A stretch of DNA of 62,744 nucleotides from Chthoniobacterales bacterium (GTDB lineage Bacteria; Verrucomicrobiota; Verrucomicrobiia; Chthoniobacterales; UBA6821). Shown here in pieces: positions 23,991 through 60,347 of the stretch (positions are counted from its first letter, which is position 1; the number at the start of each line of letters is the position of its first letter). The notes beneath the pieces are model-generated. The model was given only the letters and a program-made list of their open reading frames with translations, searched no databases and had not been told where the DNA came from. A program made the translations under genes and the position numbers. The stretch is from contig JAPJNA010000046.1 in NCBI GenBank assembly GCA_026461395.1, forward strand, positions 1 to 62,744, read 5' to 3'.

Positions 23991-24577
23991 TCCCGCGGAG
24001 GCGCAGAGGCGCGGAGAAGATACTATGAGCAAGGCTGATAATGGCGGGTATATTCCATTTAGAATCAATCTCCCCCTTCATTACCATGCATCCCTTCCCC
24101 CCCTCAGCGCCTCTGAGGGAAAATATCTTTTAACTCACCGGACAACTCAATGAACAATGAATGAAAATGAGATTGGCACACGGATTATTGAAGCAGCGAT
24201 CAGCGTGCATCGGGAACTTGGCCCAGGCCTCTTGGAGACTGTTTACGAAGTTGTCCTATCTCGGGAGTTAGCTAATCATGGATTGAAATCTGAGAGGCAA
24301 ATCCCCGTTCCGATCATCTACAAGGGAGTAACATTTGATGAGGGGTTCCGGGCCGACATCATCGTGGAGAAAAAAGTCCTGCTTGAGCTAAAATCTGTGG
24401 AGAGAATTATTCCAGCTCACAAGAAACAGGTTCAGACCTATTTGAAGCTGACAGGCTTGAAACTCGGATACCTACTGAATTTCGGGGAAGACGTTCTCAA
24501 GAGTGGAATCACCCGCTGCGTAAATGGACTGGAAGATTAGATTCTTCAACCCTCTGCGCCTCTGCGCCTCCGCGGGA
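23991..24577. mobile_element. Putative element: GxxExxY gene bracketed by 26-bp inverted repeats
   Basis: Left TCCCGCGGAGGCGCAGAGGCGCGGAG (23991-24016) and right CTCTGCGCCTCTGCGCCTCCGCGGGA (24552-24577) are 25/26 complementary; extra partial inverted arm at 24102-24120. Confidence 0.65.
24157..24540 (+). CDS. GxxExxY protein (PD-(D/E)XK-like nuclease fold)
   Basis: VHRELGPGLLETVY, RADIIVE...ELKS, QVQTYL, GYLLNFG. Confidence 0.93.
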   Translation: MNENEIGTRIIEAAISVHRELGPGLLETVYEVVLSRELANHGLKSERQIPVPIIYKGVTFDEGFRADIIVEKKVLLELKSVERIIPAHKKQVQTYLKLTGLKLGYLLNFGEDVLKSGITRCVNGLED

Positions 24578-25390: not shown

Positions 25391-25750
25391 TCTCCCGCAG
25401 GGGCGTGGAGAATAAAGACCGAGATCTCCCGCAGAGGCGCAGAGGCGCAGAGAGGGAAAGAGAAAAGGATTTAATATGGAACTCAGGAACTCAGGAAAAG
25501 CATGAGCCAACAATGTTGCATAAAGATCTTGAAGTAGGATCGAGCGAAATTCTCCTTACTTCCCAATAAGGGCACACGTCTTTATTTCTCTTTTTCATTT
25601 CTGAGTTCCTGAGTTCCATATTAATTCTCTGCCTCCTCTACATCTCAGAAATTGATATCCCGGCCATTGCCTCGCCTTAGCGCCTCTGCGGGAGAATCTC
25701 TGCGGGAGAATCTTTTCCCCCACCCCCTCTGCTTTTCTGCGTTGCGGGAA
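25391..25750. repeat. Nested inverted-repeat element (CGCAGAGG family outside, GGAACTCA family inside)
   Basis: Outer arms 25427-25452 and about 25676-25693; inner perfect 24-bp IR TTAATATGGAACTCAGGAACTCAG at 25471-25494 and 25601-25624. Confidence 0.8.
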
Positions 25751-25853: not shown

Positions 25854-28241
25854 ATGAACGAAATGGCACCGGCCAAACTCTCCGGATCAGTACCACCGCC
25901 GCCTCACCCACGCGAGGAGGAACGGATCGCCCGCCTACTTGGCTACGACGTTCTCGATACCGAACGCGATGAGCTTTTCGACCGTATCACCGCAATGGCT
26001 GCTGAGATCACGGGATCGCCGATCTCCCTTGTCTCCTTGGTCGACAGGAATCGGCAGTGGGTGAAGTCCAACTACGGAATCGATCTTAAGGAGAGTTCAC
26101 GCGACGACTCCTTCTGTGGTCATACGGTCATGGATGCGGATAATCTCATGATCATCCCGGATTCAATGAAGGATCCTCGCTTTGTTCATAATCCGTTTGT
26201 CGTCGGGGAACCCCACATCCGCTTCTACGCGGGTGTCCCTCTTCAGAATGGTGATGGCCTCGCAATTGGCAGTCTCTGTGTCATCGACCGGAAGCCGAGG
26301 GAATTAACACCAGATCAGATCGCCTCGTTGAAGAATCTCGCCAAGATTGCCATGGATTACCTCGATATCCATCGCTCCAATCGTGAACTCACACGTCTTC
26401 TTCTGAGGGAGAAGGAAATCTACAACCGACTTCTCAACATGTCCTCAGAGATGGCCTCCTCGTCAGTCACTCTGGAGCAGGCCCTCCAGAGTATCATGGA
26501 TCACCTTGATCCCACGATGGGATGGCTTTCATGCCGCATGACTAACTTCATGACCCATGGTTCCGATGGGATCCGAATGAATCCCCTCCTTCCCCAAGAT
26601 CCGGAAACCGCTCAGATCTGGAGGAAGATTGATTCTCAGGCCACAAAACCATCACACGATGGAGAGAACACAGCCTTCATCTCCACAGGCCTCGACGCAC
26701 CCAAGTATGCCTATCTCGTGGTGCCGATCAGGAACCGGGGTAAGCTGCAGGCCAAGATTGAAATGATCTACCCCGATCACCGCAAGATGGATCCCAGGAT
26801 CAAGGAGGTATTCGACATCATGGCGGCGAATCTCGCGATTGTGGCAGAGAGGGAGATCGCCAACATGGAGCTCCAGCACCGCGCCGTTCACGACGCGCTC
26901 ACCGGGGCTGTGAACCGGACGCTCTTCCTTGAGGAGCTTCAAAAAGCAATCTCTCAAACCGATTCGGGTAGCCCCGATTCCGCCCTCCTCTTTCTCGATC
27001 TCGATGGATTCAAGGATGTGAACGATAATTTCGGCCACCAGATTGGTGACCGCCTTCTCGTCGAGGTCACGGAACGACTTAGGCATCTCATCCGACAAGA
27101 AGACATTCTCGGACGTCTGAGTGGCGACGAGTTTGTCCTCCTGGTGAGCCATCTTGATATCCATCGGGATCTGGATGCATTGCTCAAACGGATTCAGAGA
27201 CGTATCTCCCAGCCCTACATGCTCGGTGATCTGGAGATCCGAATCACCAGCAGCATCGGTGCGGCGATTCTCGACCGGAACGACCTCACCACACCCGAGC
27301 TCCTTCGCCGTGCCGAGGAGTCCATGTACCTCGTCAAGCATGGGGAGCGGAATGGGTACTGCATCGCTACCGAGGACATCATCCGCGCATTCAAGAAGCG
27401 CCTCGATCTCGACCGCAATGTCCACGAAGCCGTCTATCAAAAACGGCTTCTGCTACATTTTCAGCCGATCGTGGAGATCGAAACCGGAAATATCTGCTCA
27501 GCGGAGGCGCTCCTCAGGGTGATGAACAAGGATGGGTCCATTCTCGCCGCTTTCGACATTATCCCCTCCATGGAGCGCATCCGCCTTATGTCTGAGGTTG
27601 ATGAATGGGTCTTCGCCGAGTCCGTCCGTATCCTCCAGCAACACAGGAAGACATGGGAGGCGATTCCTGGATTTCGCCTCTCTCTGAATGTGAGCCCTAG
27701 TATCCTCATGACCCATGGATTCGCCACCCTCTCCTTGAATCGCCTCCAGACAGCGAGTGTCTCCCCCACGATGATTCGTCTCGAGATCGTTGAGGACCAT
27801 CTGGATATGGGCAATGCCTCGCTGATGGAAAATATCACCCTCTTCCGCGATGCAGGGGTGAAGGTCGCAATCGATGACTTCGGGACAGGCTACAGCAACC
27901 TTCAGCACTTGATCTCCATCCCCTGCGACACGCTCAAGATCGACCGCTTGTTTATTCAGGGAATTCCCTCCGGAGACGAAAAGAAAATCCAACTCCTGAC
28001 CGCGATGCTTCAGTTGGGGAAAACCCTTGGCTACACTGTGATTGCCGAGGGGATCGAGCTTCAGGAACAGGCCGATCATCTCCTAGCGATCGGTTGCAAG
28101 TATGGGCAGGGATACCTCTACGGGAAGCCGATGACGATCGATCAGTTCCTCGAGCGCCTCATGGAGCAACCTCCGAACGAACTCGATCTCTTCTCCTCCT
28201 CACCAGAGCTCACACATACTCCGACGCTACGCCATCCCTAA
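25854..28241 (+). CDS. GAF-GGDEF-EAL protein
   Basis: GAF (IRFYAGVPL, GSLCVID), SGDEF, EALLR, DDFGTGYS, QGYLYGKP. Confidence 0.93.
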   Translation: MNEMAPAKLSGSVPPPPHPREEERIARLLGYDVLDTERDELFDRITAMAAEITGSPISLVSLVDRNRQWVKSNYGIDLKESSRDDSFCGHTVMDADNLMIIPDSMKDPRFVHNPFVVGEPHIRFYAGVPLQNGDGLAIGSLCVIDRKPRELTPDQIASLKNLAKIAMDYLDIHRSNRELTRLLLREKEIYNRLLNMSSEMASSSVTLEQALQSIMDHLDPTMGWLSCRMTNFMTHGSDGIRMNPLLPQDPETAQIWRKIDSQATKPSHDGENTAFISTGLDAPKYAYLVVPIRNRGKLQAKIEMIYPDHRKMDPRIKEVFDIMAANLAIVAEREIANMELQHRAVHDALTGAVNRTLFLEELQKAISQTDSGSPDSALLFLDLDGFKDVNDNFGHQIGDRLLVEVTERLRHLIRQEDILGRLSGDEFVLLVSHLDIHRDLDALLKRIQRRISQPYMLGDLEIRITSSIGAAILDRNDLTTPELLRRAEESMYLVKHGERNGYCIATEDIIRAFKKRLDLDRNVHEAVYQKRLLLHFQPIVEIETGNICSAEALLRVMNKDGSILAAFDIIPSMERIRLMSEVDEWVFAESVRILQQHRKTWEAIPGFRLSLNVSPSILMTHGFATLSLNRLQTASVSPTMIRLEIVEDHLDMGNASLMENITLFRDAGVKVAIDDFGTGYSNLQHLISIPCDTLKIDRLFIQGIPSGDEKKIQLLTAMLQLGKTLGYTVIAEGIELQEQADHLLAIGCKYGQGYLYGKPMTIDQFLERLMEQPPNELDLFSSSPELTHTPTLRHP

Positions 28242-28252
28242 GGAACTCATTC

Positions 28253-30634
28253 ATGAACAACGAGCCATTACCATCTTCCCCTGTGAATAAATCCTCTACC
28301 GCTGGAGAAATCCCCTCTTCCCCTACCCCGTATGAGGAGGAGCGTCTTTCCGTTCTCCAGAGCTTCGATCTCCTAAACAAAGAACCAATCCCCATTCTCG
28401 ATATCCTCTGCCAGTACACCGCCACTCATTGTGGTGTTCCCACGGCAGCCATCACGCTGGTAGATCGGGAAAAGATCCTGCTCAAGTCTGTCGCAGGAGT
28501 GATCAAGCCCCTAGAAATCGAGCGCACGACGAGCTTCTGTGCCAATGCCCTGATTAGTAGGGAGAAGGTCTTTGTCGTTCCCGACACATTTCTCGATCCG
28601 CGGTTTGCCTCCAATCCCCAGGTCACGCAGGAACCCTTCATTCGCTTCTATGCATCCGTGCGACTGACCACCACCACAGGTCAGGACATCGGATGTTTCT
28701 GCATCATGGATACCAAGCCGGGAACACTCTCAGAGGATCATGCAGAGTTTCTGACAGGCATGGCCAAGCAGGTCATCAAGTACCTGGAGGGTGAAAAGAC
28801 GAAAAAGGATCTTGCCCGCCTGCTCCTTCTTGAAAAAGAGGTCTATAACAAGCTCCTGCTCACCTCGGCGAACCTAGCATCCGTAGCACCCACCTTTGAC
28901 GAGGCTCTCCAGAGCATGATCCTCCATCTTGATCCAAAGCTCGGATGGCTCTCGGCCCGCATCCGCAACATGCAGACCGGCGGCACCACGGGGATCACAT
29001 ACAACCCGATCCTACCCGAGGATCCCGAGCTCCCCCTGCTCTGGAACCGCCTCGATAGTCAGTCCAGCCACCCCAGGCTGGAAGTGCCCCAGACGGACTT
29101 CATCAACTCCGCCCCGCTCCGCCCCGAGTACTCCCATCTGGTAGTTCCGGTACGGATCCGTGAGCGGCTTGTCGCCGTGATGGAGTTTCTCTATCCGGAT
29201 CATCGCAATGCGGATCCCCGGATTCGTGATGTCTTCAACCTCATCGCGGCCAATCTCTCCATCGTCGCAGAACGCGAACTCCTGAACATCGATCTGAAGT
29301 ACAAGTCAGAGCACGACCACAACTCAGGAGCGCCGAACCGCGAACTCTTCGTCCAGAGGCTGGATCGGATCCTTCAGGAGGGGAGCCTCATGAGCAATCG
29401 GAAACTGGTGCTCTTCTGCTTCGACATCAATGGTTTCCAGTCGATCAGCGACGACTTCGGCTACGAGGCCGGAGTCGAAGTACTCCGTGAGATCACCAGA
29501 AGGGCATCAAAGTTCTGCTCGGGGGATGACACGATCGGGCGACTTGTCGGCGGGGAGTTCCTTCTGCTCATTCATGAGAGAGAGCCCTACAGCTCACTCG
29601 AACTCACCATCAAGCGGGTGACATCCAACCTGAGCGGCGAGTTCCAATATGGTGATGCCAGCATTGATATCCAATTGAGCATAGGTTGTGTGGCCCTTGG
29701 TTCTGCCGAAGGATCCTCAGCCGAACTCATCCGCCGTGCCGAGGAGGCTATGCACCGCGTCAAGAACGGACAGAATCGCGGAATCTGCGTTGCCGATGAG
29801 CAGGTCACGCGGGAGTTCCTCTACAAAAGGGCGATGAACCGCACGGTCAAGGATGCGGTGAAGAACAACAGAATCTCACTCTACTATCAGCCGATCGTCG
29901 AGTTAGCCACGGGTAGGATCGTGGGGGCGGAGGCCCTGATGCGTCTGGTGAATCAGGATGGAAAACTTCTAGAGGCCAAGGATTTCATCGACTCCATGCA
30001 TAGGATGCGTCTGCTGGGCCAGATCGATGCCTGGGTCATCTCAGAGGTGCTTCTCATCTTGAAGGAAAACAAGAGCTTTCGGGATATGATTCCCGACTTC
30101 TATTTCTCCCATAATGTTACGCCTGAGGTCATCTGCCGGGAGGACTTTCACGAGCACTTCATCGCACAAGTCGAGCGATCCGGCGCACCCGCAAACGGAA
30201 TCCACATCGAGATCACCGAACAATCGATCATCCCCAACAACCAGATCCCCAACAACCAGATCCCCAACAACCAGATCCTAATCAATAACCTCAAGGTAAT
30301 GAAGGATTATGGCATCAAGGTATCTCTGGATGATTTCGGCACGGGATACAGCAATCTTCAGATCATCGCGCAATACCCGGTCGACATTATCAAGATCGAT
30401 CGCTCCTTCCTCACAGGGATTGTCTCCGGAAATACCGTGATGAACAACCTCTTGCGCTCCATCACCGACATTGCCAAGAACTTTGGCTGCAGCATGGTGG
30501 CCGAGGGAATAGAGCAACAGGCCGAGGCAGAGCACCTCCTCTCGCTGGGATGCACCCATGGACAGGGATATCTCTTCGGGAAGCCAATGCCTCTAAAGGA
30601 ACTCCACGCACTGGTCATGAAGCAATCAGGCTAA
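28253..30634 (+). CDS. GAF-degenerate GGDEF-EAL protein (likely phosphodiesterase)
   Basis: Paralog of the previous gene; VGGEF degenerate site; EALMR, DDFGTGYS; start at MNNEP. Confidence 0.9.
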   Translation: MNNEPLPSSPVNKSSTAGEIPSSPTPYEEERLSVLQSFDLLNKEPIPILDILCQYTATHCGVPTAAITLVDREKILLKSVAGVIKPLEIERTTSFCANALISREKVFVVPDTFLDPRFASNPQVTQEPFIRFYASVRLTTTTGQDIGCFCIMDTKPGTLSEDHAEFLTGMAKQVIKYLEGEKTKKDLARLLLLEKEVYNKLLLTSANLASVAPTFDEALQSMILHLDPKLGWLSARIRNMQTGGTTGITYNPILPEDPELPLLWNRLDSQSSHPRLEVPQTDFINSAPLRPEYSHLVVPVRIRERLVAVMEFLYPDHRNADPRIRDVFNLIAANLSIVAERELLNIDLKYKSEHDHNSGAPNRELFVQRLDRILQEGSLMSNRKLVLFCFDINGFQSISDDFGYEAGVEVLREITRRASKFCSGDDTIGRLVGGEFLLLIHEREPYSSLELTIKRVTSNLSGEFQYGDASIDIQLSIGCVALGSAEGSSAELIRRAEEAMHRVKNGQNRGICVADEQVTREFLYKRAMNRTVKDAVKNNRISLYYQPIVELATGRIVGAEALMRLVNQDGKLLEAKDFIDSMHRMRLLGQIDAWVISEVLLILKENKSFRDMIPDFYFSHNVTPEVICREDFHEHFIAQVERSGAPANGIHIEITEQSIIPNNQIPNNQIPNNQILINNLKVMKDYGIKVSLDDFGTGYSNLQIIAQYPVDIIKIDRSFLTGIVSGNTVMNNLLRSITDIAKNFGCSMVAEGIEQQAEAEHLLSLGCTHGQGYLFGKPMPLKELHALVMKQSG
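30230..30278 (+). repeat. In-frame 15-bp tandem repeat x3 (IPNNQ)
   Basis: ATCCCCAACAACCAG x3 followed by ATCC. Confidence 0.95.
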
Positions 30635-34067: not shown

Positions 34068-34093
34068 TCCCGCAGAGGCGCTGAGACGTTGAG
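34068..34093. repeat. Solo degenerate CGCAGAGG-family arm
   Basis: TCCCGCAGAGGCGCTGAGACGTTGAG, about 15 nt after the stop codon. Confidence 0.7.
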
Positions 34094-34185
34094 GAAAAAT
34101 TTCATAAGATTGTCCGGTTAGACGTTCTTGGAACTAAGCGTTTCTACCAATTGAGGGATCGGGAGACCGGGGTGATCCTCTCCCT

Positions 34186-36946: not shown

Positions 36947-37093
36947 TCCCGCAGAGGCGTAGAGGCGTGGAGGAGGATGACAGATGAATAAGATCTGTGT
37001 TGGTCTTGGTAAGGAGACCCCGAAGAAACCCAATCTCTACAAAATCATTTTCCCTCCTAATTCCTTTCTCCGCGCCTCTGCGCCTCTGCGGGA
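36947..37093. repeat. Gene-less CGCAGAGG-family inverted doublet
   Basis: TCCCGCAGAGGCGTAGAGGCGTGGAG (36947-36972) and CTCCGCGCCTCTGCGCCTCTGCGGGA (37068-37093). Confidence 0.85.
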
Positions 37094-37224
37094 GTAATTC
37101 CTAAGTTACCTGAATTCCACATCCATCATCCCATTTATCCCCTTCATCCCTGTAAAATCATTTCAGCTCTCCGCGATTGCTAGCCCGGCCGTTGCTTCGC
37201 AACCGTGACGGCTGCGGGATTACT

Positions 37225-44271: not shown

Positions 44272-47200
44272 ATGAGCTCTACGGACATGACGCCCTCCTC
44301 TATTCCTGAATCTGTCGCCTCGGTAGAAGAACGAGTTCATCCCTTCCGGATCTTCGACAAACACGAGCGCTTGACGGCCATCATCTGCTTTCTCATAGCG
44401 CTGGTGACATATTGGGCGACCGTGATGCCAAATATCGGCCTCAACGACGACGGCGAGATGGCTACTGCGGCCCTGCACTTCGGGGTCATGCACCCCTCAG
44501 GCTACCCTCTCTGGACGATCCTGGCAGGGCTCTTCAGTCATATCTTCCCGTTTGGCAACGGATCCTGGAAAATCAATCTCTTCTCCGGGCTCTGCACGGC
44601 TATCGCGGCCGCTGTCTTTTCTCTGGTATCGCTGAATGCGACGCGTTGGTTGGGTGTGAAGAAGCTGCCTGCGACCATCCTCTCCGTGGCCTCGACCCTG
44701 ACCTTCATTTGGGTGACTCCTATCTGGTCTCACGCGGTTGTCGGAAAGGGACTTTACGCCCTCCATGTCTGTCTGATGATGATCTACCTGATGCTTACTT
44801 ATCTCTGGATAAGAAGGCCTCACTGGAAGAATGCCTTTGTCTGGTTGGTCTTCATTTTCTGCCTTGGGATGAGCAATCACCACATGACCCTGGCCATGGC
44901 CTTCATGCCTCTCATGGTCATCCTGCTGCTGCATGCAGAACTCTTTTGGGAATACACAGTGTACAGTATTCTGGTCGCAAGCGTTCTCTACCTCGGCTTT
45001 GCCTACCTCTCCACGGATCAATATCATCCCATGGCGATGAAGGCGGCTGTCCGGCTCTTCTACACAGTATGGGCTGGATTCCTTCTCCTGATTATCGTGC
45101 GTCGCAAGCTCACCGAATGGCGACAGGGTCTGCTGCTTTTTGTCGCTGTCTTTGTCGGTCTGCTTCCCTACGCCTACATGCCCTTCGCTTCCTCGACCAA
45201 TCCCCCGATGAACTGGAGTTACTGCAGTACTCCCGAGGGATTCTTCTACGCCATCAACCGCTCCCAGTATTGGGGAACTTTGGCGGATCAGCTTCAGGGT
45301 ACGGTCGGCAAACTCGTCGGTGTTGCCCCTGCCGAGAAACCGAAGGGACCGAAGGCGCCTGATGATGAGAGCGCCATGCAGCAATTTGCGGGATACTGCA
45401 AAGTCTACTGGAGCGTTCTCGCCCGTAACATTTCACCGATTCCGTTGGTCTTTGCCCTTCTTGGCTTCGCTCTTTTCTGGCGATTGTCACGGGAGCAGCG
45501 CATCTGGTTTTACCTACTGGTCATCGGCTTTTGTCTGGCGGCATTTCTGGAACCCATCCAGGCACCAAACGGCTATGATAATTCCGGATGGGACATGCAG
45601 TACCAGTACCAGAGCCTCTGCTACGGTTTCTTCATCATGCTGGCAAGTTACGGGGCCGCCATGATCTTCGCCTCGCTTCATCACGGAAAATTCCGACCCT
45701 TGGCATGGACAATACCGATCATTTCAGCCGCAGTTGCGATCTACACCTTGGTGGTGTGCTATCCAAAAAGCAACCAGCATGGTCACTGGTTCGGATGGAT
45801 GTACGGGCACGACATGCTCGCCAACTTGCCGAAGGATAGCTTTGTTTTCGGAGGGACCGATCCAGGTCGCTTTGTTCCAACCTACATGGTCTTCGGTGAA
45901 AGCTTCGAGAAAACAAAACGGGATCCGAACTTCGACCGCAGGGATCTCTACATCGTGACCCAGAACGCACTGGCCGACACCTTCTACAATCGCTACATCC
46001 GCTCCCATTACACCACGGAGCGCCCGACAACCTTCAGTTGGTTCGAGAAGCTTCTTGGCCGCGATCATACCTATCCGAATGAAACACTCATCCTTCCCCA
46101 TCGGGAGGATATCATGGCGCTCTTCGGGGAACTGATGAATCAGTACCAGAAAAATCCCCAGGCAATGCCCAACCCTCAGAGTGATCCTGTCGCCCTGAAC
46201 TCGGCTGTGGCCGAATGGATCTTCCTGCATAACCGCGACAAGAAAGACGGGACTCCCCGGCATTTCTATGTGGAGGAGAGTTTCCCCATGCAATGGTCCT
46301 ATCCTTACGCCCTCCCGCACGGGCTTTGCTATGAGATCACCCATGACAAAATGGGCACCCTGCCTCCGGGGACGGCTGAGAGGGATCTGGCTTGGTGGGA
46401 TGATTACATCCAGAAACTCGATTCCGTACCCGGTTTCCGCAACGACGATCTGGCCCTTCACTCCTTTGCCAAACTGCGCAATACCGGTGGCAATATCTAT
46501 GCCTTCCGCAACATGCGTTCTGAAGCGGAGCGTGCTTACAGACAGGCTCTCTCTCTCTGGCCTGCGAACACCGAAACCACCAGCAATCTCGTCAATCTGC
46601 TCTGGATACAGGGACGTTTTCAGGATGCCCGAGATCTCGTGGCGGGGTTCTTACCGATGGATCCCAATAGCAAGGTCCTTCAGCGCCTGAGCGCAGCCAC
46701 GGAAGCTAGACTAAAGGCTTCCAAAGATCTCCCAATGCAACTCGCAGCACTACAGGTCAACCCAACTAACAGGCAGGCACTGGCGCCGGTCCTTCAGAGC
46801 TTCATGATGCTGGGGCGCACGGGCGATGTCGACGCGACCATCTCCAATGCCATCGCGGCAACGCCCAAAGACATCTCATTCCTCAGGGACATGATCAACT
46901 TCTATGCCACCCAGGGTCGCATTCCTCAGGCGCTGGAAGTTGCAAAAGTTCTCGAGAAAGCGCAACCCGACCAGTGGGATATCCCCTTCACTATTGCAAA
47001 ATACGATCTCATCACGGGGCAGCGGGAAGCGGCGTTCAACAACCTGCGTCGTGCGGTTCAACTCGGGGGAAATAATGCACTACAGCAAATCAGCCATGAG
47101 CAGATCTTCCAACAAGTGGCGCAGGATCCGGCCTTCCAGCAGGCTCTCCAACCATCTGCTCCAGCTCAGGCCGGTGGCAAGGCTTTGGGAGAGATGTCCA

Positions 47201-47277
47201 AGGCGATCAGTACTGCCCAGGGTGCATCCCCAACCCCTTCTGCAACACCCAAGCACTCCAAGAAGAAGAGCCAGTAG
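44272..47277 (+). CDS. DUF2723 (TMEM260-like) polytopic membrane protein with C-terminal TPR
   Basis: DDGEM...GVMHPSGYPLW, SNHHM, PPMNW, GGTDPGRFVP, TPR-like C-terminus. Confidence 0.85.
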   Translation: MSSTDMTPSSIPESVASVEERVHPFRIFDKHERLTAIICFLIALVTYWATVMPNIGLNDDGEMATAALHFGVMHPSGYPLWTILAGLFSHIFPFGNGSWKINLFSGLCTAIAAAVFSLVSLNATRWLGVKKLPATILSVASTLTFIWVTPIWSHAVVGKGLYALHVCLMMIYLMLTYLWIRRPHWKNAFVWLVFIFCLGMSNHHMTLAMAFMPLMVILLLHAELFWEYTVYSILVASVLYLGFAYLSTDQYHPMAMKAAVRLFYTVWAGFLLLIIVRRKLTEWRQGLLLFVAVFVGLLPYAYMPFASSTNPPMNWSYCSTPEGFFYAINRSQYWGTLADQLQGTVGKLVGVAPAEKPKGPKAPDDESAMQQFAGYCKVYWSVLARNISPIPLVFALLGFALFWRLSREQRIWFYLLVIGFCLAAFLEPIQAPNGYDNSGWDMQYQYQSLCYGFFIMLASYGAAMIFASLHHGKFRPLAWTIPIISAAVAIYTLVVCYPKSNQHGHWFGWMYGHDMLANLPKDSFVFGGTDPGRFVPTYMVFGESFEKTKRDPNFDRRDLYIVTQNALADTFYNRYIRSHYTTERPTTFSWFEKLLGRDHTYPNETLILPHREDIMALFGELMNQYQKNPQAMPNPQSDPVALNSAVAEWIFLHNRDKKDGTPRHFYVEESFPMQWSYPYALPHGLCYEITHDKMGTLPPGTAERDLAWWDDYIQKLDSVPGFRNDDLALHSFAKLRNTGGNIYAFRNMRSEAERAYRQALSLWPANTETTSNLVNLLWIQGRFQDARDLVAGFLPMDPNSKVLQRLSAATEARLKASKDLPMQLAALQVNPTNRQALAPVLQSFMMLGRTGDVDATISNAIAATPKDISFLRDMINFYATQGRIPQALEVAKVLEKAQPDQWDIPFTIAKYDLITGQREAAFNNLRRAVQLGGNNALQQISHEQIFQQVAQDPAFQQALQPSAPAQAGGKALGEMSKAISTAQGASPTPSATPKHSKKKSQ

Positions 47278-47301
47278 AACTGAGAACTAAAAAGAAAGAA
47301 C

Positions 47302-47470
47302 TCGCGCAGAGGCGCAGAGGCGCAGAGTTTTTAAGCCTCGAGGCAACCGCATTCCAAGAAACGTTTTAAGAAAAACGTGCCTTTTGAATTGGGTGTTTGA
47401 ATGGCCGCCATACGCTCAACTCCGAACGCCTTTGTCTCTTTACCCTCCGCGCCTCTGCGCCTCTGCGCGA
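47302..47470. repeat. Gene-less CGCAGAGG-family inverted doublet
   Basis: TCGCGCAGAGGCGCAGAGGCGCAGAG (47302-47327) and CTCCGCGCCTCTGCGCCTCTGCGCGA (47445-47470). Confidence 0.9.
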
Positions 47471-47488
47471 TGTTTTTCCCTTGATGCA

Positions 47489-48652
47489 CTAGTAGACCAA
47501 GGGAGAGTTGCCCCCTTCTTCCATCAGCTTGGCAGCCTTAGCTTCGGCAAGACTTGCCTCCTGCTCTACGACTTTTTCCTGGAGAAAGGCTTTTAACTCA
47601 GGGATCCCCTCACCCAGTTCGGCGCAAATCGGGAGAATCGTGACACCCTTGAATTTCTTTTTGAAGAGCTTGAGATTTGCTGTGGCTTCGGGCATGTCCA
47701 TCTTGTTGGCGACGATGCACCAGGGACGTTCCGCCAGTTCGGGATTATAGAGTTCCAGCTCCTTGCGAAGAGCATTCAGATCATCCATGGGACTGCGTCC
47801 CTCGGATCCAGCCATATCCAGCACCATGAGTAGATAGGCGCAGCGCATGACATGGCGCAGGAATTGATGGCCCAAGCCCCTGTTCTCATGGGCTCCTTCG
47901 ATTAATCCGGGAATGTCGGCAACGGTTGTCTTGTGGTAATCCTCAAGGTCAACAACTCCAACCTGCGGGTTACGCGTGGTGAAGGCATAGGATCCGACCT
48001 TCGGATGGGCACGCGAGATTGCTCTCAGAAGAGTCGACTTGCCTGCATTCGGATAACCAACCAGACCGGCAAAGGCGATGGAGCGCATCTCGAGTAGGAA
48101 CCAACTTTCATCACCTTCTGTTCCTTCGGTGAAACGTCGGGGAGCCTGATTGCGTGAACTCTTGAAGTGGATGTTACCACGTCCTCCTTTTCCTCCGTGA
48201 CAGATGATGAATTCCTTGCCCACTTCGTCCAGGTCAGCGACCAGATCCTCGGGCATTGGATCGGCGAGACCTTTCTTGGCACGAGGCTGATCGGAGGGAA
48301 ATTCTTCCCCGTCAATCAACTCAGGCTCGGCAAAGGGATCGTGAGGGGCTGGTGTCGGAAACCGATAGATCAAAGTACCGACGGGAACAGGCACCACGAG
48401 ATCGGGGGCCGACTTGCCATGTCGTTGGCGATAGGAGCCCTTGCCACCCGGTTTGGCTTTCAGGATCGGCTCGAAGAAGAGATTGGCCAACTGGTCGATA
48501 TGGTTGTCGGCACGGAGAATGACATCCCCTCCGTCGCCTCCATCACCACCGTCCGGCCCGCCCTTAGGGATGAACTTTTCACGGCGGAAGCTGGCGGACC
48601 CATCGCCTCCGTCGCCCGCCTTCGCATGCACCCTTACTCGATCAATGAACAT
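47489..48652 (-). CDS. obgE: GTPase ObgE/CgtA
   Basis: MFID...SFRREKFIPKGGPDGGDGG, GYPNAGKS, DIPG, NKMD. Confidence 0.95.
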   Translation of the reverse strand: MFIDRVRVHAKAGDGGDGSASFRREKFIPKGGPDGGDGGDGGDVILRADNHIDQLANLFFEPILKAKPGGKGSYRQRHGKSAPDLVVPVPVGTLIYRFPTPAPHDPFAEPELIDGEEFPSDQPRAKKGLADPMPEDLVADLDEVGKEFIICHGGKGGRGNIHFKSSRNQAPRRFTEGTEGDESWFLLEMRSIAFAGLVGYPNAGKSTLLRAISRAHPKVGSYAFTTRNPQVGVVDLEDYHKTTVADIPGLIEGAHENRGLGHQFLRHVMRCAYLLMVLDMAGSEGRSPMDDLNALRKELELYNPELAERPWCIVANKMDMPEATANLKLFKKKFKGVTILPICAELGEGIPELKAFLQEKVVEQEASLAEAKAAKLMEEGGNSPLVY

Positions 48653-48656
48653 TCGG

Positions 48657-49862
48657 CTACCTTTGCAGAAGCTTGTCGTAAAGTCGCTCAGTTTTGCGGG
48701 CAATCGCATCCCACCCGAAAAGCTCCTCGGCGCGCTTCCTCCCAGCAGCCCCCATTCGCGAAGCAAGATTGGGATCGGCCATAAGTAGATTGATCTTGGA
48801 GGCAAGGTCTGAGGCAAAGGCTGCAGGATCAGTCGCCTCGAAGGGACTCTCTTTCATCTGCTCAAGGGGTATAAGGAAACCAGTCTCGCCATCGACGACT
48901 ACCTCCTTGATGCCACCGACAGCACTGGCGACGACAGGTGTGCCACAGGCCATGGCTTCGAGATTGATGATGCCGAACGGTTCGTAGATCGAAGGGCAGA
49001 CGAAAACAGAAGCGCTTGAGTAGAGAGCAATCGCTTCGGGTCGACTCACCATCTTCTCAATCCAGACAATCTCACCATGATGCTCCCGTGCTAAGGCAAT
49101 CGCCTGCTGCATCTCGGAGGCGATCTCGGGGGTGTCGGGCGCGCCTGCACAAAGCACCACCTGAAAACCGGGATCCAGATGACGGATTGCACGGACCAGA
49201 TGAATGATTCCCTTCTGACGTGTGATACGGCCAACAAAGAGGACATACGGGCGATCGGGATCAACACCAAGCGAGCGGAGCACTTCGGGATTTTTTGTCG
49301 AGCGATACTCGCTTAGGTCGATGCCATTATGAATCACGCTGAGGCGCTCTTCGCTGACATTGAAGAGGGAGAGAATATCCTTCTTGGTCTCTTCTGAGAC
49401 GGCAATCACAGCATCAGCCATCTCAAGAGCGGTCTTCTCAACCCAGAGACTGAAGTCATAACCACCTCCAAGCTGTTCGCGCTTCCAGGGGCGGAGAGGC
49501 TCGAGGGAGTGAACCGTAATGACGAGGGGAATGCCGTAGTTGAGCTTCGCCATAATACCGCCAAGGTGGGTGTACCAGGTATGGCAGTGGACAATGTCGG
49601 CGGTGATCCCGGCGCCGTTGAAATCGACACACCGACGTGAGGCACCCAGTGGGCTCTGAAGCGGCTTGGGGCAGGTCATCTCGGGAGTACCAAGGCCGAA
49701 TCCCTTGACCTCGATGGAGCCGATTTTCTCATCCTGATCGCCGAAGCAGCGGACCTCCACCTCCATGAGCTTGGCCAACTCACGGCTCAGATAATCGACA
49801 TGAACGCCCGCACCCCCGTAGATATGCGGAGGATATTCGTTGGTGAGAAGGAGTGTTTTCAT
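48657..49862 (-). CDS. glgA: Glycogen synthase, GlgA/GlgM (actinobacterial-type GT4)
   Basis: EYPPHIYGGAGVHV, HCHTWY, HSLEPLRPWK, CPSIYEPFGI. Confidence 0.88.
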   Translation of the reverse strand: MKTLLLTNEYPPHIYGGAGVHVDYLSRELAKLMEVEVRCFGDQDEKIGSIEVKGFGLGTPEMTCPKPLQSPLGASRRCVDFNGAGITADIVHCHTWYTHLGGIMAKLNYGIPLVITVHSLEPLRPWKREQLGGGYDFSLWVEKTALEMADAVIAVSEETKKDILSLFNVSEERLSVIHNGIDLSEYRSTKNPEVLRSLGVDPDRPYVLFVGRITRQKGIIHLVRAIRHLDPGFQVVLCAGAPDTPEIASEMQQAIALAREHHGEIVWIEKMVSRPEAIALYSSASVFVCPSIYEPFGIINLEAMACGTPVVASAVGGIKEVVVDGETGFLIPLEQMKESPFEATDPAAFASDLASKINLLMADPNLASRMGAAGRKRAEELFGWDAIARKTERLYDKLLQR

Positions 49863-50041
49863 GCGAGTGATTTTATCCCAGATTATGCAATAGAATCAGG
49901 GAAACATAGAAATCTTGTTCACCAATGCGGTGAAGGGACTCAAGACAGAAGAAGAGGTATAACTCTTCGGTCATCTCTACACTTGAAATTCTGATTCCTG
50001 TATTAGGTGCAGAGGTCCAACCCCTAATGCAATCTTTGGGT

Positions 50042-50512
50042 TTATAAAAACTTCACGGGCAGGAGATACTGCAGGATCCCCGATCCAAACTGGAGACGAG
50101 GTAGGTTCACCCCTAGAAGAGAGGCCTTGGCAACCTGAATAGACTCGCTCCGTTCCATCCCGATCAGCGAGGCACTCAGGGAACTTAAATCCGGTTCGTG
50201 CCCCACGATCATGACGGAATCAAGCTTTGCATAGGCTGATAGCTCGGCCAGGGCCACCTCGGGATTCATCCCGCAAGCGGCCCACGGAACTTCACTCAGA
50301 GGTGGTTTACCCAAAAGCTTTGCAACGATTTCCGCTGTTTCACGCGCACGAACGACGGGACTGGTGAGGATGATATCAGGTCTGAGGCACTGCTCTTTCA
50401 GGAAGCAACCAATCCGGCGCGCCTGCTTGAATCCTTTTTCCGTCAGACATCTGGAAAAGTCATCGAGACGATGAGGCTCAGCCTCGGCGTGTCGTATCAG
50501 ATGGAGAAGCAT
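50042..50512 (-). CDS. sixA: Phosphohistidine phosphatase SixA
   Basis: RHAEA, TSPVVRARETA, VGHEPD. Confidence 0.85.
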   Translation of the reverse strand: MLLHLIRHAEAEPHRLDDFSRCLTEKGFKQARRIGCFLKEQCLRPDIILTSPVVRARETAEIVAKLLGKPPLSEVPWAACGMNPEVALAELSAYAKLDSVMIVGHEPDLSSLSASLIGMERSESIQVAKASLLGVNLPRLQFGSGILQYLLPVKFL

Positions 50513-50523
50513 GAAGGGAAAGG

Positions 50524-50551
50524 GATGAAGGCTGAAGCCTGAGACCTGAAA
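50524..50551. repeat. Heptamer array (nnTGAAn family)
   Basis: GATGAAG GCTGAAG CCTGAGA CCTGAAA. Confidence 0.65.
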
Positions 50552-50578
50552 GGATTAATGGGCCTTTCGGCCTTACAA

Positions 50579-51337
50579 TCACATCGACATGCCGCCGTCT
50601 ACCGCAAGGACCTGACCGGTAATATATCCGGCTGCAGGACTGCAGAGGAAAGCGACTGTGGAGGCGATATCCTCGGGCTGGCCGAAACGGGAAAGAGGAA
50701 TCTGCGCTAGGGCTCCCTTGCGGATCTCCTCGTTCAGGACTGCTGTCATGTCGGTCTCGATAAATCCAGGGGCCACCACATTGACCGTGATACCACGGCT
50801 GGCGACTTCCTTCGCGAGAGCCTTAGTAAGGCCGATCATGCCGGCCTTGCTGGCGGCGTAATTGGTCTGACCCGCAAGGCCCATGAGACCACTGACGGAA
50901 CTGATGTTGATGATACGTCCGGAGCGCTGCTTGATCATGGTACGCAGAACGGAGCGAACAAAGTTGAAGGCTCCCTTGAGATTGGTATCAAGAACGGCAT
51001 CCCATTCCTCAGAGGACATGCGCATGAGGAGATTGTCCCGGGTGATTCCCGCATTATTTACCAGAATGTCAGCACGGCCAAAGTCGGCTACAATCTGCTC
51101 TCCTACCTTCTGGACGGCATCGAAATCGGCTACATCGACGGCATAGGCGCGTGCAGATCCCGGACGGATTGCTTCAAGGGCAGCCGCGACCTTGGAGGAG
51201 TTTTCCTCACTTCGGCTTACGACAGCCACCTTGGCACCCGCCTCGACAAAATAACGGGCAATGGATTCACCAATGCCGCGTCCGGCTCCGGTGACAATGG
51301 CAACTTGATCCTGCAGTGGGTTGTTGATGGTGCTCAT
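50579..51337 (-). CDS. fabG: 3-oxoacyl-ACP reductase
   Basis: TGAGRGIG, NNAGITRD, YAASK, APGFIETDMT. Confidence 0.92.
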   Translation of the reverse strand: MSTINNPLQDQVAIVTGAGRGIGESIARYFVEAGAKVAVVSRSEENSSKVAAALEAIRPGSARAYAVDVADFDAVQKVGEQIVADFGRADILVNNAGITRDNLLMRMSSEEWDAVLDTNLKGAFNFVRSVLRTMIKQRSGRIINISSVSGLMGLAGQTNYAASKAGMIGLTKALAKEVASRGITVNVVAPGFIETDMTAVLNEEIRKGALAQIPLSRFGQPEDIASTVAFLCSPAAGYITGQVLAVDGGMSM

Positions 51338-51424
51338 AAATTCGAAATGAAAGGTGATAAGCAAATCACTTTACCCGAGAAGGGTCCTGCAGGAAATCGC
51401 TTTTTCCCTATGCAGGCAGAAGAG

Positions 51425-52669
51425 TTACACATGGGTAGAAGTAGCCTCCCTGAGTTTCGGCATGTGCCTCGAGAGTACAAACTGAGCCGCTCCCATAAGT
51501 CCGAGGATACCACCCACCACGGCGAAAGCTCCGAAAGCTCCCAAGCCGGCTGAGAAGGCGGCGCCAACAATGGTCTTGATGACAACCGAAACCGCATTCA
51601 CACCGAACTGGGAAGCGGAGGTAACACCGCCAGCATGTTCAAGCGGAGTAAGTTCCTGACGTTTTTTGGTCAGAGTCAAGCGGGCGCAGACATTGAACAA
51701 GGCAAAAAGGAACACCGCCACCGTCATAACCCAGAGATTTTCAGGCAACCAACCGATGGCCAGGATGAACGTTCCGACAGCCCCCAGAGCGACCCACTTC
51801 CCTCCGGAGTTTTTATGCTTTGTGAATGCATAAATCAGTGCTCCAACAACACCTCCGAGGGCAAAGGCGGCGCCGATCTGCCCAACAGAAGCTGACTTAT
51901 GAAGGAGCCCCTTGGCAAAGAAAGCACTCAGGAGCTTGCGTAGCGGGTAGATATTGAACGACATCAGGCCGAGGCAAGTGATCAGGAGCGGTCGGCGGGT
52001 GAAGATATATTTTATTCCAGCCCAAGAACCCCCGTGGGAGTGATGGACCGCTCCTTTGCTCATACCTCCGGTTTTCTTAGGAATGAAGAAGTAGGCCACT
52101 GAGGAGAGGACAAAGCCGACCGGTATCAAGATATGAGGAACGATCTTCCCTCCCCACATCATCAACCCGCCAAGAATAAGCGGCCCAGCGACTCCACCGA
52201 TATCAAAGGTGAGTTCGTAGCGTGAATTGATCCTGTCGAGTTGCTCAGCACGATGCTGTGCAAGTTCAAGCGGAACCGTGTGAACTGATGTATCAACAAA
52301 GCCCCTGATCAAGGCCTCCAATGTGTAGCAACCCATCGCCCACCAGAGACTCAGAAAACCGCAGAGCATCGAAATGGGTACTCCAGCTAAAGCAACGGCC
52401 CTCAGGAAGGTGGCAACCACAAGCACACGTCGGGCTCCGAATTTCTCTGTAGGCCAGCCTCCGATATAAGTACCAAGCATGTGAATTCCGGTATCAAAAG
52501 CGGAGAAAAATGCCGCGCCGCCGAGTGAACCGGAAAGCTTCGCCAGCAGTAGAGGTTGTGCCAGATGCAGGGCGCTATCGACCAACTGGGTCAGGAAGAC
52601 ACCACCAAGAAACCCGCGCAAACGGATCGGGTACTGGGGTTCCTGATGAGTTGCCACGTTCAATTCCAT
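51425..52669 (-). CDS. MFS transporter
   Basis: About 12 TM segments; GWPTEKFGARR motif A-like; start taken at MELNV. Confidence 0.8.
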   Translation of the reverse strand: MELNVATHQEPQYPIRLRGFLGGVFLTQLVDSALHLAQPLLLAKLSGSLGGAAFFSAFDTGIHMLGTYIGGWPTEKFGARRVLVVATFLRAVALAGVPISMLCGFLSLWWAMGCYTLEALIRGFVDTSVHTVPLELAQHRAEQLDRINSRYELTFDIGGVAGPLILGGLMMWGGKIVPHILIPVGFVLSSVAYFFIPKKTGGMSKGAVHHSHGGSWAGIKYIFTRRPLLITCLGLMSFNIYPLRKLLSAFFAKGLLHKSASVGQIGAAFALGGVVGALIYAFTKHKNSGGKWVALGAVGTFILAIGWLPENLWVMTVAVFLFALFNVCARLTLTKKRQELTPLEHAGGVTSASQFGVNAVSVVIKTIVGAAFSAGLGAFGAFAVVGGILGLMGAAQFVLSRHMPKLREATSTHV

Positions 52670-53343
52670 GCGGCGTGCTTTTGATATTCCTGTGTAGCCG
52701 GGACACTGATGATTCGTCTCTCGGGCAGAATGAGTGCGGTGAGAGCACCTCCGTAGACACATCCAGTGTCGAGACCGATGGCATTCGGACGCATCATCGG
52801 ATCACGCTTGGCCCAGTGGCCAAAGACAATGAGCTGCTCCTTCTTGTAGTCCTCGTACCATGGGACATGCATCCCATCGGGAACTCGGATGGTTATGAGG
52901 TCGCGAGGCGACTGCTGGCGCAGTTCGGAGATACGGGGATCGAGCCCAGCATGGACGACCAAGAACCCCTCCCCCTCCAAATAGAGCGGCCATGAACGGA
53001 TGAAATCCATAGCCTCATTGTACGAATCGCCCAGCTGACTTAACATCTCCCAGTCAGAGGAACCCTTTGCCGGTTTATCCCCAGCAAGCCAGCGGGTAAG
53101 AAGCCGCTGCTCGTGATTCCCCATCACGCACCGCACATTCGGAGTCTCCATCGCCCAACGGAGAACGGAGGCGCTGTCGGGGCCTTTTCGGACCAAATCA
53201 CCGACCGCGATAATCTCGTCATCCTCAGTAGCGACGACGGCTTCGAGTAGACTCCGAAGTTCCTTTATACAGCCATGAATGTCACCGATCACGATTGTCC
53301 TGCGGACTCTTGGAGCGGAGGGAGTTGGCATGGGGGAGGTCAT
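52660..53343 (-). CDS. Metallophosphoesterase (ApaH/PrpE-like)
   Basis: GDIHG, GDLVRKG, GNHE, VHAG, FGHW, LDTGCVYGG. Confidence 0.9.
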   Translation of the reverse strand: MTSPMPTPSAPRVRRTIVIGDIHGCIKELRSLLEAVVATEDDEIIAVGDLVRKGPDSASVLRWAMETPNVRCVMGNHEQRLLTRWLAGDKPAKGSSDWEMLSQLGDSYNEAMDFIRSWPLYLEGEGFLVVHAGLDPRISELRQQSPRDLITIRVPDGMHVPWYEDYKKEQLIVFGHWAKRDPMMRPNAIGLDTGCVYGGALTALILPERRIISVPATQEYQKHAAWN

Positions 53344-53659
53344 GGTCGGAAGATCGGCCCGGAAGAGATATCGGTATGCCGTGCATAAGTCAAAGCGGCT
53401 GGAATGATGAATCCTGCAAGGAGACTCTTCGTATAAACTGGACGCGGAGAATGAAACTGGAGCACCGAAAACTCCGGTTGCCAGTAAAGTTACCATCGTT
53501 GCGAGAACGACTAAGAGGCAGAGGCAGAGGCAGAGGCCACCGGAGGAATGCAGATTGTCATGTAAGCAATCAATTCGCCCCCTCAGACCCTCTTTAATAT
53601 AATGCAACAAATCTTAGACTTATACTGGGTATTTCGTTGAGGTGTGCTAGTTTACGTTC

Positions 53660-55204: not shown

Positions 55205-55298
55205 GGATTTCGCTAGTTTGGTTGACCGATGGGAAGGTCCTCGGTCCCAAGAGCCTACATGAGCTCATTGAGAAAAACCTCCGAACTGGTCTTGGAGA

Positions 55299-56384: not shown

Positions 56385-56544
56385 GATCGGGTTTTTTCGA
56401 AAAAGGCAGAACTAAAGTGTGAGAGAAATTCATTGCCCTGCAAGCAGGGATTGCTACTATTTTCTGCTCTTCTGCCGTCACTTAAAAGGAGTCGCGGTAG
56501 GAGGGATTGGCAACAATCTCTCCGTAGAAGTTATTCAATACATC

Positions 56545-58236: not shown

Positions 58237-58254
58237 CCCTTCGCTAACCACACC

Positions 58255-58617
58255 ATGTCACAGCCAGAAATCACTGCCTACCTCAAGACCTCCTGCGGTT
58301 GGAGCAAGGGAGTACGTGCCATCATGGACAAGTATTCCCTTCCCTACACAGAGAAGGACATCATCCAGAATCCGGCCTTCCGGTTCGAGATGGAGCAGCG
58401 CAGCGGCCAGTCGCTCTCCCCCTGCGTGGAGATCAACGGGGTCATGCTGCCCGACATCAGTGGTGAGGAAGTCGAACGCTACATGCTCGAGAAGGGGCTT
58501 GTATCAGCTAACGAGGTGAAGACCGACGTGCCGCTGAATGCCGCCTGCTCGGATGCAGAACACGCTGCGATGGCTCAGGGCCAGGGCCTGGGCCAAGGAA
58601 TCAAGATGAACCTCTGA
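58255..58617 (+). CDS. Glutaredoxin-like protein
   Basis: CGWS site, SGQSLSPCVEING. Confidence 0.8.
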   Translation: MSQPEITAYLKTSCGWSKGVRAIMDKYSLPYTEKDIIQNPAFRFEMEQRSGQSLSPCVEINGVMLPDISGEEVERYMLEKGLVSANEVKTDVPLNAACSDAEHAAMAQGQGLGQGIKMNL

Positions 58618-58637
58618 GGTTTTCAATAACTCAACAA

Positions 58638-58673
58638 GAAGGCCGCACTCGGAAGGGTGCGGCCTTTTTCTTT
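58638..58673 (+). terminator. Intrinsic terminator after rpsA-grx
   Basis: GGCCGCACTC-GGAA-GGGTGCGGCC-TTTTTCTTT. Confidence 0.85.
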
Positions 58674-58691
58674 GGCAGAAACTGAAGGTTC

Positions 58692-60338: not shown

Positions 60339-60347
60339 GGGATGGAG

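Follow-up and report, generated by a model that had tools for sequence, protein, structure and literature searches.

We analysed a 62,744-nt contig of a Chthoniobacterales bacterium (JAPJNA010000046.1 of assembly GCA_026461395.1; hereafter the window) and focused on a unit at 23991-24577, a small nuclease gene of the GxxExxY family between two inverted arrays of short repeats, which we call arms. The window is contig C20 of a 2.03-Mb, 80-contig, 95%-complete assembly (G000), and the same stretch was found in sequencing runs from freshwater and lake metagenomes. The unit sits between genes for a UDP-sugar dehydrogenase and a GH16 protein; a GT2 glycosyltransferase gene and GGDEF/EAL genes belong to the same cluster. 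An earlier sequence-only reading had described a 127-aa GxxExxY gene enclosed by 26-bp arms, and our inverted-repeat search and profile matches confirmed this: the arms (23991-24016 and 24552-24577) are each 26 nt long, complementary at 25 of 26 positions (96%) and 535 nt apart. That reading had taken the repeat unit to be 9 nt; the consensus of 105 arms gives a period of 8 instead. It had also overlooked a third, partial arm at 24101-24119 in the orientation of the right arm, so that the layout of the locus is arm, 83-nt spacer, partial arm, 37-nt leader, gene, arm. The features are as follows.

23991-24016, plus strand: left arm, TCCC followed by three 8-nt iterons (GCGGAGGC, GCAGAGGC and GCGGAG), purine-rich on the plus strand.
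24017-24100, plus strand: spacer of the arm pair, retained in a gene-less allele.
24101-24119, minus strand: internal arm, partial and degenerate (CCCTCAGCGCCTCTGAGGG), oriented as the right arm; its counterpart is intact in the related genomes G010 and G029, and it forms the left boundary of the segment missing from the gene-less allele.
24120-24156, plus strand: leader from the internal arm to the start codon, kept in G010 and missing from the compact form of the locus (G006 and G030).
24157-24540, plus strand: GxxExxY gene, 127 aa, a minimal RecB/Cas4-like PD-(D/E)XK nuclease.
24552-24577, minus strand: right arm, the reverse complement of the left arm, beginning 11 nt past the stop codon.
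24100-24549: 450-nt segment that spans the internal arm, leader, gene and trailer, is delimited by the direct repeats CCCTCAGCGCCTCTG and CCCTCTGCGCCTCTG and is missing from a ~98%-identical strain.

The open reading frame (ORF) at 24157-24540 matches PF13366 (PDDEXK_3; E = 6.6e-41, 139.8 bits against a cut-off of 22) and TIGR04256 (GxxExxY; E = 1.5e-41, 141.4 bits against a cut-off of 35). Across 13 diverse members, E27, D67, K79 and Y95 of the catalytic set are invariant and E77 and Q91 nearly so; with D67, E77 and K79 conserved and the core fold predicted, the protein belongs to the PD-(D/E)XK superfamily. The predicted structure (pLDDT 94.2) comes closest to Cas4, the AddAB nuclease domain and lambda-exonuclease-like proteins, and weakly to Hjc. 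Judging by the conserved residues and the predicted fold, the nuclease looks active. A search of the PDB by protein sequence returned 0 matches, and among PADLOC defence-family profiles the only match was a weak one to Cas4 (E = 0.0079), which gives no membership of a defence-protein family. PF13366 is large, with 19,136 clusters at 50% identity (E ≤0.001), and the closest named relative of the window's protein comes from an uncultured Verrucomicrobiae metagenome-assembled genome (MAG). The table of a PD-(D/E)XK survey gives the function of PF13366 as 'Unknown' and reports multiple transfers for it (PMC3424549). Some relatives (P0002-P0005, P0009, P0010 and others) are ~270-295 aa long and hold two GxxExxY domains in one chain, as inspected in P0002; these two-domain chains hint that the working unit of the protein may be a dimer. 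Many other family matches carry N- or C-terminal extensions that resemble ORF calls run on into arms.

We determined how generally GxxExxY genes are bracketed by arms by scoring inverted repeats (IR) in their flanks, with a score of at least 30 as the criterion; the units are inverted arrays of tandem 7-11-nt repeats. All four PF13366 matches in the window's genome are bracketed by inverted arrays. The window's gene has CGCAGAGG arms, the gene on contig C62 has GCACAAAA-type arms and that on C49 has GGGATGAA-type arms, while the fourth match (C4:22967-23230) is an internally deleted remnant, consisting of the N-terminal 46 aa and the C-terminus, that lies tightly within CGCAGAGG arms. Twenty relatives from the genus or order contributed 32 loci, 27 of which reached the criterion; 400 random windows had a mean score of 17.7, a 99th percentile of 23 and a maximum of 32. 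We extended the scan to more than 12 phyla, taking one genome per species and proteins 50-80% identical to the window's (80 loci, 78 with enough flank); the query was an alignment of the closer subfamily, so this sample is biased towards the window's own subfamily. Here 59 of 78 loci reached the criterion, compared with 1 of 147 windows displaced within the same loci. Six of the seven GxxExxY genes of Nostoc linckia NIES-25 and Flavobacterium rivuli were bracketed as well. Arms are therefore far commoner around these genes than in controls, in support of the sequence-only reading, with a clear inverted repeat at 86 of 110 GxxExxY loci. In 50 of these 86 the layout is simply arm, gene, arm, with the arms a few to ~30 nt from the ORF ends; the others have extra arms on one or both sides, and outward-facing arms occur in 5 loci.

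These counts bear on the plainest alternative, that the arms are a generic intergenic repeat and the gene merely sits in a repeat-rich spacer. Arms are abundant, a few host genes also lie between same-family arrays, and several arm families pile up in the same spacers, all of which such a coincidence would produce. It would not produce bracketing at 86 of 110 loci against 1 of 147 displaced windows and ~1% of control windows, nor a word that changes with the protein subfamily inside a single genome and follows the protein across phyla. The data already contradict this account, and we give it almost no chance of being right.

The repeated word is specific to the protein subfamily. At least eight subfamilies have a word each (CGCAGAGG, GGGATGAA, GCACAAGA, GGAACTCA, CATGAAGA, CGCAGATT, CGCGAAGA and CACGAAAG), and a Nostoc and a Flavobacterium genome each hold three distinct gene-word pairs, with words or spacings (8, 9 or 10-11 nt) that differ around a CGCARAG-like core. 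Across the phyla sample a single word family, TC[ACG]CGC[AG][AG]AG repeated three times, is near-universal from cyanobacteria to Verrucomicrobiota. It occurs in Nostoc, Nodularia, Desulfobacteraceae, Binatia, Acidobacteriota, Bacteroidota, Planctomycetota and Chloroflexota, and is retained next to proteins only 50-70% identical from Cyanobacteria, Desulfobacterota, Binatia, Acidobacteriota and Bacteroidota. Over 86 loci, arm similarity rose with protein identity from 0.25 (<45% identity) through 0.41-0.46 (45-70%) to 0.71 (>70%), and subfamily and word co-vary, in line with the sequence-only reading (Mantel r = 0.40, p = 0.001, 999 permutations, uncorrected for shared descent).

We then asked whether the arms are constrained as a motif or as the two sides of a stem. 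Partner arms were no more alike than shuffled non-partners (0.811 versus 0.806, p = 0.30, 29 pairs). Mismatches between gene-flanking arms, read on the sense strand, comprised 19 that are G·U-compatible, 20 A·C and 38 transversions. Since there is neither partner covariation nor a G·U bias, the constraint on each arm seems to be that of a sequence motif rather than of half a stem, and what can be measured as constraint on the arms looks to be the word itself, arm by arm, and not the hairpin. Taken with the co-variation of subfamily and word, the best-supported reading of these comparisons is that the protein and its flanking word form a co-evolving pair under selection, in which the word is probably read arm by arm. 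An RNA-stem signature had been considered as positive evidence in its own right; it was rejected on the same two counts.

The stem matters most to a second alternative, in which the unit is an RNA cassette resembling the intervening sequences (IVS) of 23S rRNA: a 26-bp stem in the transcript would be cut by RNase III, releasing or regulating the ORF without disturbing the host operon, and the protein's job would have nothing to do with the arms. The anatomy and size do match those of the Coxiella IVS, for which a length of 428 nt, a 28-bp terminal stem and a small S23p ORF are described (PMC4990558), and PF05635, the IVS protein family, has the same bracketed layout in the genomes studied here. 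The predicted transcript closes with the arm stem, 26 bp if transcribed (minimum free energy −212.6 kcal/mol, z = −5.4), and the upstream arm is purine-rich, placing GGAG/GAGG just before the start codon in compact forms. Against this stand the lack of an excess of G·U over A·C mismatches (19 versus 20 here; 23 versus 32 at PF05635 loci, with 43 transversions) and of partner-specific complementarity, the retention of the word with the subfamily across phyla and hosts, of which a plain stem has no need, and the gene-less pairs, which it leaves unexplained. We regard this cassette as quite improbable. Two further searches addressed the locus as RNA or as a transcription unit: an Rfam search, rRNA included, returned no family at threshold and only sub-threshold hairpin-like miRNA matches, and a simple scan of the element for promoters and terminators gave a single promoter-like site, which falls within the ORF, and no terminator, a yield that did not exceed that of shuffled sequences.

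The spacer at 24017-24100 drew separate attention. It is 89% identical to the G010 spacer at the same site, although the synonymous sites of the adjoining gene are saturated (dS, the synonymous divergence, is 2.5), and on that account something in it may be functional. Nothing in it was picked up by the simple promoter scan; a by-eye −10/−35 pair was dropped when the scan gave it no support.

Arms also occur far from the gene. The window contains 14 matches to the arm word GCGCAGAGGCGC (at most one mismatch), where 0.41 are expected and none of 100 shuffles had more than 2, which bears out the claim that the word is dispersed there. We scanned the genome with a 15-mer of the arm at up to two mismatches (195 raw matches versus 35 in the reversed genome) and obtained 113 arm sites, comprising 33 close plus/minus pairs, mostly 32-225 nt apart, and 47 solo arms. 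The consensus of 105 of the genome's arms is TC[C/G]CGC[A/g]GAGGCGC[A/G/t]GAG[G/a]CGC[A/G]GAG, with A-rich and T-rich outer flanks. The variant TCCCGCGG, thought special to the gene's arm pair, is so within the window; genome-wide it is also present in at least three further arms (on C3, C19 and C56). Inner sequences of the pairs are nearly all unique genome-wide, being shared only by C9/C72 and C46/C4, and the spacers of four window pairs and of the pair at a second site in G023 have no second copy in the window's genome. The pairs favour convergent intergenic regions, which hold 18 of 30 pairs and make up 156 of 881 intergenic regions (at least 50 nt long, between genes from rough ORF calls); only 2 of 30 pairs lie between divergent genes. 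The same-family copies in the window, together with one nested pair, are listed here.

25427-25693: gene-less pair, plus arm at 25427-25452 and short minus arm at 25677-25693.
25474-25497 and 25598-25621: nested pair of a second family inside the preceding one, ATATGGAACTCAGGAACTCAGGAA and its complement.
34068-34094, plus strand: solo arm.
36947-37093: gene-less pair, plus arm at 36947-36972 and minus arm at 37068-37093.
47302-47470: gene-less pair, plus arm at 47302-47327 and minus arm at 47445-47470.
58692-58716, plus strand: solo arm, just past a terminator-like GC hairpin with a T run (hairpin and arm together at 58643-58716).

The genome holds other period-8 tandem arrays too, of AACTCAGG type (~53), AACAGCCT type (~25) and AAGGTGGG type (~10), and the array families nest within each other, as at 25427-25693 in the window and at C18:3643-4313. 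A further short dispersed repeat (…CCCGGCC(A/G)TTGC(C/T)TCGC…, also GCAACGGCCGGGCTAGCAATCGCG) lies beside or inside arms at window positions 25655-25679 and 37165-37200; this repeat splits the left arm in G029 (L073) and the right arm in G005 (L066). Synteny with G005, G003 and G023 stops at the solo arm at 58692-58716.

Dispersal extends to other hosts of the gene. A related 15-nt pattern has 148 matches in Nostoc linckia, 49 in a deltaproteobacterial MAG and 45 in F. rivuli, the last often in plus/minus pairs with 75-250 nt between them; two Prolixibacteraceae genomes have 0 and 6. Dispersed gene-less pairs are present in four phyla. In F. rivuli (G035), a tandem block of arms at C4:246838-247914 (plus, minus, minus, occurring twice, ~580 nt apart) adjoins a GxxExxY gene that has no downstream arm.

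We compared arm abundance with the presence of the cognate gene, defined by at least 70% identity, in 23 genomes of the genus. Ten genomes with an intact cognate gene have 20-197 arm matches (median 100.5), ten without it have 3-64 (median 21.5), and three with gene fragments only have 202, 42 and 10. Because these genomes are kin and not independent, the difference in medians is only suggestive of a dependence of arm abundance on the cognate gene, to which there are clear exceptions. The window's own genome has one intact gene, one remnant and ~100 arms of this family, and some relatives have two or three genes at 70% identity or more. The GGAACTCA/GGAAATCA arms, to which the window's nested pair at 25474-25497 and 25598-25621 belongs, bracket a distinct GxxExxY subfamily in G001, G003, G008, G011 and G012.

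To gauge the age of the unit, we located the same site in 11 other genomes of the genus, which display several states.

No arms: G025 and G004.
Gene-less pair: G024 and G026.
Compact form (arm, ~10 nt, ATG to stop, ~15 nt, arm): G006 and G030.
Composite form as in the window, with a homologous spacer: G023, G010 and G029.
Decayed gene: G005.
Arms of another family: G003.

Orthologous genes at the site gave ratios of nonsynonymous to synonymous divergence (dN/dS) of 0.03-0.08 at dS of 1.1-2.5 over 11 computable between-species pairs. Compared with the window's arms, those of G010, G006 and G030 at this site carry changes at 2-3 of 26 positions, confined to degenerate positions of the consensus. 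By these comparisons the gene at this locus is an old, vertically inherited resident under strong purifying selection and not a fresh insertion.

Strains close to the window's also differ in whether the gene is there at all. A 13.5-kb contig of sequencing run X7 (~2.2% diverged) joins position 24099 directly to 24550 and retains both outer arms and the spacer; runs X2 and X5 show this joint too, and X5 has gene-covering contigs besides. An empty allele between the dehydrogenase and GH16 genes, which the sequence-only reading had proposed to look for, is therefore found in so far as the gene is missing; both arms are kept. Because its breakpoints fall in CCCTCAGCGCCTCTG/CCCTCTGCGCCTCTG and the composite form is common to distant members of the genus, we interpret the gene-less allele as a deletion between direct copies of the arm.

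The gene-less pairs show a turnover of their own. At 25427-25693 the arms are constant and the inner sequence varies among genomes 90-98% identical in the flanking genes (L185-L188): in G023 it is 77 nt long and unrelated, in G005 it differs in part and is accompanied by extra arms, and in the X7 strain 94 other letters take its place. No arms lie there in G003 and G006. No further copy of any of these inner versions turned up in the window's genome. G003 and G023 have the pair at 47302-47470 in the corresponding position, an instance of orthologous pairs passed on vertically among close relatives; at that site G005 has a different gene and G006 a tRNA and arms of another family. Synteny with relatives was compared over window positions 45000-62744, and the second site was fetched directly. 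Target-site duplications (TSDs) had not been evident to the sequence-only reading, and we found none at the gene locus or the second site when compared with an arm-free relative, which at 90-93% identity is weak evidence.

This variation could reflect homing. Arm pairs would then be pre-existing hairpin sites, whether of the host or selfish, gene-less pairs would be cut by the nuclease and repair by arm homology would copy the gene in, with the arms themselves not propagated. Replacement of a whole spacer would leave arms abutting the ORF with nothing else between, which is the commonest layout (50 of 86); the same site is gene-bearing, a gene-less pair or empty across species and strains; contents between constant arms differ among genomes 90-98% identical; and protein and arm word co-vary. 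Efficient homing would, on the other hand, fill many pairs, and each arm family has one or two genes for ~100 arms. The gene at the site is old and vertically inherited, its gene-less allele is more simply a deletion between direct arm copies, and homing is silent on what spreads the arms. We therefore think homing unlikely to be what the unit does.

Long residence under purifying selection fits a fourth possibility, in which the arms are operator arrays of a domesticated DNA- or RNA-binding protein that regulates itself and acts at ~50 intergenic sites in termination, insulation, nucleoid organization or mRNA stability; nothing would be mobile now, and the arms would persist through their use to the host. 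Besides the strong selection and the long stay at one locus, this is consistent with the concentration of pairs between convergent genes and their avoidance of divergent ones (18 and 2 of 30), with the A-rich and T-rich outer flanks, with constraint at the level of the motif rather than the stem and with the vertical inheritance of orthologous pairs among close relatives. It does not sit well with invariant nuclease catalytic residues, with presence, absence and content that vary between close strains, or with near-identical gene-word pairs in many phyla, which point to horizontal spread of the unit, multiple transfers of PF13366 being reported in the survey table (PMC3424549). We consider a purely operator-like role a rather unlikely explanation.

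A second protein family turned out to share the anatomy. PF05635, the 23S rRNA IVS protein family with a four-helix-bundle fold, has five genes in the window's genome and occurs in 18 of 21 genomes searched; one protein tested matches the PHROG family 'Avd protein of DGR' (DGR, diversity-generating retroelement). In the literature passages seen, PF05635 is uncharacterised outside these retroelements. Twenty-two of 30 PF05635 loci (L033-L062) reached the IR criterion, as did all 3 further copies in the window's genome. Their arms are inverted tandem 7-8-nt arrays whose words go by subfamily and are unlike those of GxxExxY genes: AGRCTGWWG, GAGTCGAAAG, GTTGAGAG, GTTAAAAG and GGTGGGAA. Since the same anatomy occurs here without a nuclease, nuclease chemistry cannot be the general explanation for the arms. 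The PF05635 loci of the window's genome are the following.

C41:37008-37444
C43:12254-12732
C8:6519-6951
C38:26925-27339
C12:31239-31755

We favour a partnership like that of REPINs (doublets of repetitive extragenic palindromic sequences, REPs) and RAYTs (REP-associated tyrosine transposases), in which a small protein recognises its own iterons and maintains or propagates the arrays; the chances that this is right or wrong seem to us evenly balanced. The cassette class would consist of a ~125-aa RecB/Cas4-like PD-(D/E)XK gene between two inverted arrays of about three short tandem iterons, the window's arm being TC[C/G]C followed by GCRGAGGC-type units with a period of 8. The GxxExxY protein would bind its own iteron word sequence-specifically, each arm separately, and would maintain or propagate arrays both at its gene and at the ~100 gene-less arrays, mostly inverted pairs, in 3'-end intergenic regions. 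It may do so by cutting at or near the iterons, after which host repair or recombination between arms would spread, homogenise or exchange arrays and their contents. In this way the nuclease may mobilise or process the arms. The sequence-only reading had called the unit the gene-carrying form of a REPIN/MITE-like family (MITE, miniature inverted-repeat transposable element), and a dispersed family of inverted pairs is indeed present; the likeness to MITEs fails, the inner sequences being unique and TSDs absent. Its suggestion that the mobiliser may be something other than an HUH transposase agrees with our search, in which PF01797 (HUH Y1 transposase) was not found in the 95%-complete genome.

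Several observations weigh against such a partnership. No new-insertion junction or TSD was found at the gene locus or the second site. Inner sequences are nearly all unique, and whole pairs accordingly bear no mark of recent copy-and-paste. Arms and genes are not always found together: 24 of 110 GxxExxY loci have no clear inverted repeat, G005 has 202 arms with only a gene fragment, G011, G003 and G001 have 47-64 without a cognate gene, and the GGAACTCA/GGAAATCA family has ~53 arrays in the window's 95%-complete assembly with no cognate gene among its four PF13366 matches. Same-family arrays also enclose a few ordinary host genes; by eye, the ORFs so placed that belong to neither GxxExxY nor PF05635 are peroxiredoxin-, ArfB-, PIN-, J-domain- and ABC ATPase-like. 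A host-level role as terminator or stabiliser would also account for the preference of pairs for convergent intergenic regions (18 of 30), and the bracketed PF05635 family is not a nuclease family.

A broader version of the proposal would take in both families. GxxExxY and Avd/S23p-like proteins would be the protein halves of a pan-bacterial, undescribed class of iteron arrays, each recognising a 7-8-nt word and, through cutting or recombination, writing, homogenising and spreading inverted arrays at its own gene and intergenically; ORF-bearing 23S rRNA IVSs would be the members that reside in rRNA. This we put forward tentatively, as somewhat likelier to fail than to hold. An old proposal that the IVS ORF encodes a mobility component is cited in the Coxiella IVS paper (PMC4990558).

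Elsewhere in the window, the second GAF-GGDEF-EAL paralogue (28094-30634) holds a perfect tandem peptide repeat (IPNNQ three times).

If the proposed partnership holds, PF13366 and PF05635 would each gain a concrete, testable partner in cognate, phylum-spanning iteron arrays, and the arrangement of a gene with dispersed doublets, otherwise known only from RAYTs, would have a second and mechanistically different example. The arrays may account for many short repeats between genes in Verrucomicrobiota, Planctomycetota, Cyanobacteria, Bacteroidota and others, and the arms may also explain spurious N-terminal extensions in gene calls. The long-standing question of what rRNA intervening-sequence ORFs do would be reopened, and the subfamily-specific words would point to a natural set of short-sequence-specific recognition modules.

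Lastly, we compared the unit with known systems. Outside subscription journals, family comments in databases and supplements, a literature search turned up no account of either the arms or the gene-arm association; searches for six arm strings gave no occurrence, and those for small dispersed repeats or for S23/IVS copies located elsewhere than in rRNA yielded nothing of relevance. The protein agrees with Cas4/RecB nuclease domains in fold and in the E, D, ExK and QxxxY motifs; it differs in its length of ~125 aa, in having no Fe-S cluster module and no CRISPR context, and in a sequence match below family thresholds. With PD-(D/E)XK homing endonuclease genes the unit shares a small nuclease gene and presence/absence polymorphism at a fixed site, but it has no intron or intein, and its flanking iteron arrays recur at ~100 gene-less sites per genome with about one gene copy. 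Like MITEs, the arm pairs are short non-coding units bounded by inverted repeats, dispersed intergenically and with a gene-bearing relative; unlike them, they show no TSD, their inner sequences are not common to copies and no transposase of a known class is associated. The 23S rRNA IVSs of Leptospira and Coxiella (S23p/PF05635) are similar in their ~430-590-nt size, small ORF and 26-28-nt terminal inverted repeats, as far as the Coxiella account goes (PMC4990558), whereas the window's unit lies between protein-coding genes, encodes a nuclease and has iteron arrays for arms, with gene-less copies and no RNA-stem signature.

The closest resemblance is to the REPIN-RAYT system, whose described hallmarks (PMC3337134) are type-specific association, one gene per type, spacers that are all different and A/T flanks. 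Both systems have a short gene with repeats of its own type on either side and one repeat type per gene type; about one or two genes per type seem to stand beside tens to hundreds of gene-less inverted doublets; and spacers all differ, outer flanks are A/T-rich and inheritance is vertical over the long term (PMC3337134). The differences lie in the protein, here a PD-(D/E)XK nuclease (in the parallel family, a four-helix bundle) rather than an HUH Y1 transposase, and in the repeats, here tandem 7-11-nt iteron arrays rather than palindromic REPs, although inverted doublets are present. The arms here also lack partner-specific complementarity, and one and the same word is common to several phyla. 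By this comparison the GxxExxY-iteron system looks like an undescribed counterpart of the REPIN-RAYT repeat systems.

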